Shown here: piece after piece, positions 3,001-6,000 of the stretch
Layout of the letters: every line of letters begins with the position of its first letter
Position numbering within the stretch: the stretch's first letter is position 1
NCBI GenBank assembly: GCA_964106645.2
Contig: OZ067041.1
DNA from: Podarcis pityusensis
Lineage: Eukaryota
Length of the DNA stretch: 64,000 nucleotides
Strand: one strand, 5' to 3'
Made by a program: the position numbers

Positions 3001-6000
3001 GGACAGGAGAAGGCCAATAACTTTAGATATACTCACCCAAATCCGTAGGAAGCTGAGGGCCCTGTGTTGGTCAAGATATGAAGCCAGGTTATTTTCAGCA
3101 GCGTTTTCTTTCGCATTTTTTGGCGCCCTACGCATAGGCGAAGTGGTTTGTGAGGACCGCGCAGCGTCCAGGGGGCTACTACTTGAGGACGTAACTGTAG
3201 ACAGGGCGCATGTAATGTTAAGAATCCGTAGTTCGAAGACTGATCAGCTTGGCAAGGGAGCCTTGGTTCGCCTCCAGGCGACTCAAAAGGCGGGCCCTTG
3301 CCCTGTAAAGGATGCTAGAAAATACCTGTGTGTAAGACCAGAACCTAGTGGCCCCTTTTTCTTGCATTCCGACGGTTCCTCCCTCTCAAAGCAGCAGTTC
3401 ACGAGGGTCATGCGCAAAGCAATTGCCGCCATCGGGCTTCCCCAAGAGGAGTACGCCGCGCACTCCTTTCGCATTGGGGCGGCGACCACCGCCGCCCATA
3501 TGGGCTTACCGGCTGAAAGAATTATGGACATGGGGCGCTGGAAATCCAACGCATTCCAGGGTTATATTCGGTAGACCTTCTAAATTCCCCTCAGCTTTCC
3601 CCCCGGGCACTCCTCCTGATCCGGTTCTCCGATTCTCTCTTTTCAGGTACTGGTGTGGTTCGACTGTGGATCCTCGGCCACAGCATCGTATATTGGGCAA
3701 AGCGGCGCGCCGAACAAAGGGGCTGGGTTGAAGAGCTACGGCTACCCAGCTGGGTCAAACTATCGTGGATCTCTAGGAGGGGTATGCGTTGGGAAGAGTT
3801 TTTCCCAGTTGTATCCAAAAAAATCGCTGCCGAGGGCCCACCCAGTGCCTTGGTCATCCAGCTGGGCGAGAACGATTTGGCGTATAGGAAAGGGGTGAAC
3901 TTGATGTGGAACATTATCAACGACTTGGAATTGTTGAGGGCATCCCATGAAAACATTACAATAATTTGGTCATCTTTGCTGGAAAGGCGATGTTGGCGGG
4001 ATGCAGAGAAACCCGTGGCTGTGAATAAAGCTAGAAGGATTGTGGAGCGCATGGTGGCACGTAGAGTGGCCGCATGGGGTGGTCGGGTCATTCAGCACCC
4101 ATGCATACGGTTTGACAAGGAAATGCTTTATCGCTGGGATGGCGTGCATCTATCTGTTGCGGGAAATGATATTTGGTTGGCTGATATTTTTCAAGGTGTT
4201 AGGGATTGGTTACAGGTCTGAGGGTATTGGCGGCGAGCCGGCTTGCGGCTCGGTGGCGGTAGGCATTGGCCGGGGTATTGTCATGCAGATGAGGTTGGGG
4301 GGGAGGAACGCCATCACCTCCCCCAATGCTTGAAGGGTAGTTCGTTAAAGGACTCCGAGGGGCGACGCCTCGTCCGAAACCTACGGAGGCTAGGGCCTAA
4401 AGCGCGCCCCCGAGCGGTAACCCCTCGGGGAGCGCCTAGGGATACGCATCTCGGGTGGCTCCCCCTGTTGGTGTTTAACCCTTCCCGGTCAGACCGGATA
4501 GTCGGTTAGGGGCCAATGCCTAAAGCCAATACCCTTCATTTCCTGTAATCAATAAAGTTGTGGCCATTTTCGCCCATTAACCTAAAACGCTGTGTCCGTT
4601 GTCTTTATTTATTCCACCTGTGGGGGGGGGAGGGAATAGCCACACAATGCCCCTTCCGATCGTCAGGAGGAGGGGGGGTTGTGGGATCACGACCCCGCCC
4701 ACTCTCGCTCTCCCGAGGCTGGCGCCAGCCTCGCGGGAGGCAGGGATTCCCCCAATTAGCATCCCCTGTGGCGCCAGCCAATTGGCTGGCGGCAGGGGCG
4801 GGCCTTAGAAAGGCCACTTAAGGTCGGGGAAGCCCTGGCTTGCCCCTTTTCACCCTGGAGACGACGCGGTTTCCCACCCACCCGCCCTTTAGGTTTTGCC
4901 ACTGACATTGCTATGGGCTTCGGCTGGTCGCCGCAAGGGGCCTGGTAGGAGTTTTTCCATTTGGCTAATTGGCTGGTTTTGTGAGCCACTTGGTTTTTTC
5001 GCCTACCTCGTAGCAAATCGTCACAACTCCCTCGGTTTTGGCGGTAGGCATTGGCCGGGGTATTGTCATGCAGATGAGGTTGGGGGGGAGGAACGCCATC
5101 ACCTCCCCCAATGCTTGAAGGGTAGTTCGTTAAAGGACTCCGAGGGGCGACGCCTCGTCCGAAACCTACGGAGGCTAGGGCCTAAAGCGCGCCCCCGAGC
5201 GGTAACCCCTCGGGGAGCGCCTAGGGATACGCATCTCGGGTGGCTCCCCCTGTTGGTGTTTAACCCTTCCCGGTCAGACCGGATAGTCGGTTAGGGGCCA
5301 ATGCCTAAAGCCAATACCCTTCATTTCCTGTAATCAATAAAGTTGTGGCCATTTTCGCCCATTAACCTAAAACGCTGTGTCCGTTGTCTTTATTTATTCC
5401 ACCTGTGGGGGGGGGAGGGAATAGCCACACAAGCCTCAAATCCACCTCAATACCAATAAAGTGCCTGAAGTGAATAAGGTTGGAATGAGAGGGGAAAGTG
5501 ACCTATGGTGAGGGAACAGATGAGGGCCTGAACTGCGTGGCACACACAATACATTAGAGTAACTCACAACTGTAAATTGCTGAGAACAGGGAATGAGACT
5601 CTCCATCTAGCACAATCCAGTCACTTGTACTGATGGACTGTTCACCAAGAGCACATCTGCTTATTATGATTAGCCCTCACCCAGTCCATGTGAACACACC
5701 AGGATCCAATGTTGAGAAGCAAAACTTTATTTCATCAGTATACTGGCAACACCCATGTCCAAATCTCCCAGTGACCTCTCCCAGTGGTTTCATAGAAACA
5801 CGGAACTTTGTGGTACTTCTCAGGATTAAGAGTCATTGTGCTGAACACCAGCACACCAGTCCCACTTTCTGGAACAGACCTATCAGACAGGAGTGTAACT
5901 GCTTTTAGACAGCGCCTCCAACCTTATCTAGGGCAGGCAACCCAGAAGGATACCACTGGCTGATGCTATTGAACAGTACTGAAAGGTCCAAGAGAACCAG

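Follow-up and report, generated by a model that had tools for sequence, protein, structure and literature searches.

Retrotransposons of the Ngaro group, which encode a tyrosine recombinase (YR), are known to carry a hydrolase open reading frame (ORF) that has been described without a proven function (PMC9210276, PMC6681497, PMC7192593). Here we examine one such ORF in the first 5.4 kb of a 64,000-nt stretch of DNA from the lizard Podarcis pityusensis (contig OZ067041.1 of assembly GCA_964106645.2; hereafter the window). These 5.4 kb are a YR retrotransposon whose 5' end is cut off by the window edge; the locus is the SGNH hydrolase ORF of an intact-looking lizard Ngaro element, and all features described lie on the plus strand. 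We suggest, with a probability of roughly 0.72, that one transcript of this element is read in four ways; one of the four products, the N-terminal part of Gag (GagN) joined to the hydrolase, might serve as a membrane-tethering esterase.

Two Xenopus elements, DIRS-53_XT and DIRS-54_XT (PMC9210276), have the same order of gag, reverse transcriptase/RNase H (RT/RH), YR and SGNH, the same split direct repeats and likewise no methyltransferase. Their ORFs are described as overlapping, and the available part of that account makes no mention of splicing or introns, whereas the lizard ORF forms an exon with a conserved acceptor in front of it and is probably fused to the N-terminus of Gag. Poulter and Butler (2015), as quoted in PMC13003380, have YR made by programmed frameshifting. 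In their model as in the lizard element, the YR frame is -1 to RT/RH and starts before RT/RH has ended; unlike in that model, we place a frameshift, of +1, between gag and pol, and have YR reached through a 3' splice site. The domain and the class of element are thus known, while the expression scheme appears to be new. No report of splicing of a Ngaro YR or hydrolase ORF was found in the available parts of PMC9210276, PMC6681497, PMC7192593, PMC4157794, PMC9341512, PMC8547959, PMC3783388 and PMC3266345, a search that excluded the primary Ngaro papers (that of 2004 by Goodwin and Poulter, and the 2015 paper of Poulter and Butler), supplements and Repbase, which may mention it.

For the hydrolase itself, a further comparison is with ORF1p of the CR1/L2-type LINE ZfL2-1, a slow but active esterase that binds acidic phospholipids (PMC3905857). 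Its structure (4C1B) and the lizard protein share the Ser-Asp-His triad, the oxyanion Gly and Asn, a transposon-specific Ser and a basic character, and the layout of helix, basic motif and esterase is common to ORF1p and the predicted GagN-SGNH fusion. ZfL2-1 ORF1p is the single ORF1 of an element without long terminal repeats (LTRs), whereas the lizard SGNH is the fourth ORF of a YR element and, if spliced, would have its N-terminus in common with Gag and YR; in addition, block I of the lizard protein reads GHS, and Gln stands at the position of H191. The lizard hydrolase may work like an ORF1p, but it is not an ORF1p. The GDSL ORF3 products of bdelloid Vesta elements (PMC5408684) are, like the lizard protein, SGNH/GDSL esterases in the env position that lack a transmembrane segment; Vesta elements, unlike the lizard YR element, are LTR elements with a DDE integrase. 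Finally, in Cer1 CERV (PMC10309623), as with the subgenomic mRNAs of retroviruses, one RNA is both genome and, when spliced, mRNA for an accessory protein, which is what we propose here. The lizard element would differ from these in that the integrating enzyme itself is encoded by a spliced message, and in that two enzymes share a single coding exon of Gag.

The YR stop codon (TAG, 3572-3574) is followed by a spacer of 72 nt (3575-3646) that ends in a putative 3' splice site (3615-3646), composed of a branch-like CCTGAT (3615-3620; putative branch A at 3619, 27 nt before the end of the AG), a polypyrimidine tract and a CAG whose AG lies at 3645-3646. The positions of the CCTGAT and the AG, and the start of the exon at 3647, had been given in a first-pass annotation of the sequence, and all of them were borne out; so was its claim that the exon is entered in phase 1, like that of YR, whose acceptor is the CAG at 2607-2609. 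With a simple pyrimidine/YAG score made for this analysis, the hydrolase acceptor ranks first among the 289 AGs between 30 and 4230, and the YR acceptor eleventh. The branch-like pentamer YTRAY is found in 11% of comparable windows and is by itself weak evidence. The hydrolase exon (3647-4221) consists of 2 nt, 190 codons and a stop codon. It has no usable ATG: the first one in frame (3784) falls past the codon of the nucleophilic Ser (3682), so the ORF cannot start by itself and needs either an upstream coding exon or ribosome entry by recoding. As far as can be judged from the sequence, a GT donor, a branch point, a pyrimidine tract and a frame-keeping YAG are all in place for an intron that would run from a donor in gag to 3647, and we are confident that this acceptor is used in vivo. 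A proxy for the pyrimidine tract in homologs, a rise in the hydrophobicity of their N-termini, gave only a small difference (0.62 vs 0.49 at -17/-16, 23 short vs 69 long sequences) and was not used.

Several host-gene models, namely VGLL4, UEV-domain, CIR-domain and CSDE1-like proteins (P0054, P0109, P0130 and P0138), end in a Ngaro SGNH exon; they may represent exon capture via a strong acceptor, or may be artefacts of gene prediction. A strong, portable acceptor would explain such models.

To place the acceptor in a wider sample, we scanned genome contigs with a pol alignment, which gave 23 distant loci, all within records of bacterial metagenome-assembled genomes (MAGs). These loci apparently represent animal-host DNA, being eukaryote-type elements, with several of the MAGs titled as animal symbionts. 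That bacterial MAG records hold intact eukaryote-type Ngaro elements is most likely due to host contamination; 7 of the 23 loci come from a single MAG. An SGNH ORF is present in 8 loci and stands directly after YR in 6; the other two (L012 and L021), which have their own Met and do not follow YR, were excluded from the acceptor count. If AGs within 11 nt of the block-I Gly are disregarded, the last one ahead of it is, in all six YR-adjacent loci, a phase-1 YAG located just before strand β1. Its distance to that Gly is 14 nt in five loci and 23 nt in L014, and 29 nt in the window, while the spacer between the end of YR and the acceptor varies from 67 to 403 nt across the six. An extra phase-1 TAG in L014, 5 nt before the block-I Gly, was passed over by the counting rule. 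The chance of a phase-1 YAG is 0.15-0.22 per locus, and the joint probability including the window is 10^-5.2, a value that overstates independence, as the loci are related. Five of the six loci have no overlap between YR and the SGNH ORF, so that there is hardly any place for a frameshift.

Some of these loci have peculiarities of their own. A tandem repeat with a period of ~18 codons fills the YR-SGNH spacer of L007 (3200-3440) while the SGNH frame stays open, and the acceptor is still found 14 nt before block I. The SGNH ORFs of L012 (2845-3486) and L021 (3007-3771), which are more distant, lie upstream of a gag and possibly belong to another arrangement or another element.

The YR exon (2610-3574, within a YR ORF of 2582-3574) is in the -1 frame to pol and has its first ATG at 2840; P0174 is 60% identical to it over the whole exon. 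The putative 3' splice site in front of it (2572-2609) lies in the stretch that codes for the C-terminal motif of RNase H. In 17 of 19 elements, the first AG past the D-x-L-S-R motif of RNase H belongs to a phase-1 CAG, against a background of 0.10 (L009 was set aside as frameshifted). The acceptor Gln is also conserved as protein, in 99 of the 110 pol homologs that have the motif (of 120), which speaks against reading the CAG as a splice signal, and it is for this reason that the synonymous choice was tested. With the degenerate L022 excluded, the Gln codon is CAG, and never CAA, in 16 of 16 elements tested (10^-5.7). Ahead of the acceptor, Ser and Arg are written only in AG-free codons in 13 of 13 elements with an acceptor within four codons (10^-4.9), a count that does not include six others. 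Where the Gln sits two or ten codons further downstream, the CAG shifts along with it. Judged by sequence, the evidence favours a 3' splice site in the RNase H tail as the route to YR, in conflict with the published suggestion of a -1 frameshift, and YR is likely to be made in the same way as SGNH, by splicing onto Gag.

An alternative that covers both genes is recoding or reinitiation, with ribosomes passing from YR into the SGNH frame through an overlap of 58 nt, and from pol into YR by a -1 frameshift. The SGNH frame is indeed open from 3517 across the spacer; a close Logan protein, P0001, runs unspliced through the pyrimidine tract, which also counts against our acceptor, and has an ATG upstream of it. 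Of 17 elements that have both ORFs, 16 have YR in the -1 frame relative to pol (in L009 YR is broken), as the frameshift proposed by Poulter and Butler and quoted in PMC13003380 would have it. Slippery heptamers of the form X_XXY_YYZ, counted in any frame, occur in 6 of the 17 pol/YR overlaps, but there is none in that of the window or of 10 others. The distant loci are also difficult to reconcile with recoding, as in four of the five that lack a YR/SGNH overlap the SGNH frame is interrupted by stop codons 12-39 nt ahead of the AG. Nor would recoding explain the use of CAG only, and of AG-free codons, at the YR acceptor. We therefore consider recoding quite improbable and retain splicing for both genes. 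L009 itself is unusual in that its gag and pol form one frame of 1010 codons (94-3123), with the end of pol and YR broken; this may be a fixed frameshift or an assembly error.

The first-pass annotation had foreseen an alternatively spliced accessory protein in the phase of YR, a view now supported by acceptor conservation in distant elements and by gene models of sister families. It did not name a donor. The donor most likely lies in gag, and the product would then not stand alone but be fused to the N-terminus of Gag. In a search of protein representatives, many SGNH proteins were found to have long, basic, low-complexity N-termini. The RefSeq model P0010 of Podarcis muralis is 92% identical to a full-length Gag (P0156) over residues 1-238 and then continues into SGNH. 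P0170 and P0171 exit Gag at the same codon, as does P0174, which enters YR at the residue predicted by a cut at 2609/2610, and Zootoca LOC118082278 has two isoforms of note, P0011 for GagN-SGNH and P0178 for pol. The equivalent of the exit codon in the window is CAG/GTACCT (219-227; cut 221/222, phase 1), a probable shared 5' splice site. It stands directly after a Lys/Arg-rich patch (146-193) that forms the end of the shared Gag N-terminal exon, and the same patch is found ahead of the junction in the fusion models P0010, P0011, P0157, P0158, P0160, P0161, P0164 and P0174. Gly-Thr is found at the exit codon in 10 of 10 Gag-containing lacertid models that retain this stretch. In the 75 codons before the Gag core, the best donor (scored with a donor matrix) is in phase 1 in 15 of 17 elements, while 11.1 are expected from synonymous shuffling (P 0.023; combined score p 0.0035). 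From these gene models we infer that 221/222 is probably the main donor for the acceptor at 3647. A donor in the A repeat was considered and rejected: none of the five GTR sites in the downstream copy, A2, is convincing, and a non-coding leader would yield a protein without the catalytic Ser.

A second phase-1 5' splice site, CTG/GTAAGG (849-857; cut 851/852), precedes the zinc finger and is the top-scoring donor in the gag of the window. If the acceptor at 3647 is real and 851/852 is its main donor, the product would be a capsid-like Gag-SGNH, built into the particle, in which the Gag core is retained and nothing but the zinc finger is missing from Gag. Three models (P0169, P0175 and P0176) do exit Gag at this site, and P0104 joins a partial Gag core to SGNH. 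These three, however, go on to differing pol or outside acceptors, among which no conserved pol acceptor was found, and the lacertid SGNH and YR fusion models that were found exit at the upstream donor instead. We thus regard 851/852 as an unlikely main donor, and 221/222 remains our choice.

The donor is nonetheless the weakest part of the scheme, and a number of observations weigh against the scheme as a whole. Site 221/222 is weak (2.1 bits on the donor matrix, p 0.28), with the stronger phase-1 donor downstream of it at 851/852. The GagN fusions are gene models and thus predictions; none of the 24 matches to P0010 came from unspliced-ORF sources, and no cDNA-derived fusion was among them. 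Nor is Gag the sole partner that gene predictors give to the SGNH acceptor, to which they connect exons of YR, pol and host genes as well. Among 77 homologs with an N-terminal extension of at least 80 aa, YR joins account for 7 and pol joins for 3 (as clusters), and the Gag N-terminus was matched directly by BLAST in only 3 of the 77, though a cluster of 7 proteins and another of 10 have a Gag-like appearance. An in-frame Met lies upstream of the hydrolase acceptor in two of the six distant loci (L003 and L007), and two of the 19 elements scored for YR (L016 and L017) do not have its acceptor at the first AG. The hydrolase diverges faster than YR or Pol (48% identity between L004 and L005, vs 64% and 70%), and the Gln at the H191 equivalent, found in this copy and in 18 of 66 aligned rows, may lower its activity.

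Relative to gag, pol (954-2702 in the window) is in the +1 frame in the 16 elements whose gag/pol overlap is intact; in the window its first ATG, at 1416, already falls within the RT region. The gag/pol overlap of the window contains CCC_TTT_CGG (995-1003), a candidate site for +1 ribosomal frameshifting. When this overlap is read in the gag frame, TTT_C is present in 16 of 16 elements (4.4 expected) and TTT_CG in 11 of 16 (2.1 expected); the sixteen are the window and L001-L008, L010-L012, L014, L015, L018 and L021, and the test was devised after the motif had been noticed in the window. The site agrees with the UCC_UUU_CGU class of +1 sites (PMC3498833) in its UUU_CGN, its zero frame and the overlap with the +1 ORF; the class is described in RNA viruses, whereas in the lizard YR retrotransposon it is a candidate. 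A third phase-1 acceptor, for pol, was also considered (TACTAAC at 1089-1095, CTAG/G at 1104/1105) and rejected: its branch A would be only ~10 nt away from the AG, the site has no conserved counterpart in 16 elements (those of 21 tried for which anchoring succeeded), and the gene models use three differing sites. By sequence, a +1 slip fits pol better than a splice acceptor, and Pol is in our view probably made by slippage at CCC_UUU_CGG. The perfect TACTAAC at this place overlaps the gag stop codon and stands 10 nt before a phase-1 TAG (1089-1104).

The hydrolase protein was predicted with confidence to have an SGNH fold (AlphaFold2, 190 residues, pLDDT 96.1, pTM 0.92), as the first-pass annotation had expected. 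The model is flavodoxin-like, alpha/beta with five parallel strands, and comparison by Foldseek and VIA-align returned SGNH/GDSL hydrolases (best Z 19.8, root-mean-square deviation 2.4 Å over 176 residues). Among PDB profiles, the best match is the ZfL2-1 ORF1 esterase, 4C1B (E 1e-9); the Pfam family Lipase_GDSL_2 matches at E 0.003, below the Pfam cut-off, and phmmer with the single protein against PDB gave nothing under E 0.05. In the ESM Atlas, SGNH clusters from chordates and molluscs were found. The catalytic set is intact, as had been noted from the sequence: Ser of block I (S12, 3682-3684), Gly of block II (G45, 3781-3783), Asn of block III (N75, 3871-3873), and Asp and His of the Asp-x-x-His of block V (D164, 4138-4140; H167, 4147-4149); the pI is ~10.1. 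GHS in place of the usual GDS is present too, but it is the norm of the family and not peculiar to this copy: among the 122 scorable of 165 homologs examined, block I is GHS in 103, GSS in 15, GDS in 2 and other in 2. The canonical GDS(L) block I, absent here, does occur in four of the six distant YR-adjacent loci.

A possible objection is that the hydrolase ORF is a passenger, or catalytically dead, and that its acceptor is an accidental pyrimidine-rich spacer exploited by gene predictors. In 15 of the 23 related loci there is no SGNH match, though many of these contigs end early; block I is non-canonical, and the His-to-Gln change affects a residue that a double mutant of ZfL2-1 showed to be required for activity. 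Moreover, the bdelloid GDSL ORF3s are reported to show no clear departure from neutrality (PMC5408684). In the Ngaro family, by contrast, the open frame and the catalytic residues are kept from lizards to invertebrate-type loci, in 66 aligned rows Ser in 57, Asn in 65, Asp in 62 and His in 62, and 1,354 protein representatives match at E 0.001 or better. Among the positions that are transposon-specific in ZfL2-1, the S228 equivalent is Ser in 62 of the 66 rows and the H191 equivalent is His in 47. In all 21 SGNH pairs, synonymous divergence (pS 0.69-0.88) is near or at saturation, with nonsynonymous divergence (pN) of 0.35-0.55, a sign of purifying selection. Because the protein and its catalytic residues persist while synonymous sites are saturated or nearly so, selection supports a function of the SGNH domain, as far as sequence comparison can tell. 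With the position and phase of the acceptor conserved as well, we find the passenger explanation very improbable.

The first-pass annotation had also thought of an envelope-position protein. This holds for the gene order only. A role as an envelope-like factor for movement between cells would fit the location of the hydrolase in the env position, and that of the GDSL ORFs in bdelloid LTR elements (PMC5408684), and its proposed expression by splicing, the way in which retroviral env is made. The signal peptide and transmembrane anchor of a retroviral-type envelope are lacking, however: there is no transmembrane-length hydrophobic segment in the SGNH protein (19-residue hydropathy maximum 0.84) or in the seven Gag N-termini tested (maximum 1.17), and the predicted fold is a soluble one. 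The bdelloid authors are likewise negative on an envelope role of their ORFs. The hydrolase protein, as modelled, is not an envelope protein, and a role in movement between cells is hardly credible.

Some hydrolase models are much larger than the lizard exon. P0008, P0009, P0023, P0030 and P0031, of 1309-3112 aa, contain two to six tandem Ngaro-type SGNH domains, and may be domesticated multi-esterase genes or models chained over arrays of elements.

We thus return to the proposal of one transcript with four readings. The unspliced RNA would give Gag and, by a +1 slip at 995-1003, Gag-Pol; splicing from 221/222 to 2610 would give GagN-YR of ~527 aa, and splicing from 221/222 to 3647 would give GagN-SGNH of ~397 aa, taking ~206 residues of GagN from the close model P0175. 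Spliced messages could stop at the AATAAA at 4551 in the first B repeat (B1), while genomic RNA would have to continue to the second (B2). GagN would supply the start codon together with a short amphipathic helix, a disordered linker and the Lys/Arg patch. A structure prediction for self-association of the helix (residues 14-50 of P0175, in four copies) scored 0.12 against a mark of 0.32. By analogy, GagN probably addresses both enzymes to the element's own ribonucleoprotein (RNP) or particle and to the nucleus. GagN-SGNH might then act like ZfL2-1 ORF1p, as a slow, basic esterase with an affinity for acidic phospholipids, and so tie the RNP to membranes for assembly or intracellular transport. 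Enzyme activity, membrane binding and targeting are all argued here by analogy, and for the membrane-tether function as such we would offer slightly less than even odds.

In a wider and more tentative reading, which we rate as less likely than not, animal Ngaro elements would share an old programme in which one coding Gag exon is spliced to recombinase and esterase, and Pol is made via a UUU_C +1 slip. The Gag N-terminus would be an address tag that joins an integrating and a lipid-binding enzyme in one RNP. Since the GagN-SGNH mRNA would rebuild the helix, basic motif and esterase layout of CR1/L2 ORF1p, the two might be functional equivalents, and one possibly descended from the other through a retrotransposed spliced message.

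The scheme would explain how YR and hydrolase genes without a start codon are expressed. If it is true, the real proteins are Gag fusions and annotations made of ORFs only are incomplete; work on Ngaro recombinases and esterases should then use the fusion forms. The scheme would also be open to single-base tests, having one donor, two acceptors and one slip site, and the young lizard copies would provide a second, independent system for the role of lipid-binding esterases in retroelements.

As to the element itself, its closest named proteins are from lacertid lizards, with pol identity of up to 94%. The window begins inside gag (2-1093), which has a CCCH finger near its end and lacks ~133 codons at the 5' end by comparison with the 92%-identical model P0175; the A1 repeat would be upstream of the window. 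The element is Ngaro-like in its order of gag, RT/RNase H and YR on one strand, in the -1 overlap of YR with the end of RT/RH (2582-2702) and in its 3' split direct repeats, B1-A2-B2. A methyltransferase domain after RNase H appears to be absent, with pol ending 30 codons past the RNase H motif and Pfam finding RVT_1 only. DIRS-like inverted terminal repeats were not found: none of the 25 longest inverted pairs lies inside the element, and the 3' end consists of direct repeats. B1 (4254-4647) and B2 (5039-5432) are 394 nt long and 100% identical. Because all four frames are open and these repeats are identical, the copy looks young; the 64-kb window holds no second copy of the element.

AATAAA is found in both B repeats (at 4551 and 5336), with a GU-rich stretch on its 3' side, and genomic RNA would have to bypass the first. 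The segment between them (4648-5038) is presumed to be A2 by its place between B1 and B2. It has two short palindromes (4708-4739 and 4769-4794) and CCAAT-like and GC-box-like motifs, and it may be a second promoter copy aimed into the flank. An Rfam search of 3500-5600 gave no match to E 1. Beyond the element, from 9400 to 64000, the window contains many short dispersed repeats, including a family starting TACAGTGGTACCT, and repeat pairs of at least 300 nt occur at 28055/48980 and 36233/58327.

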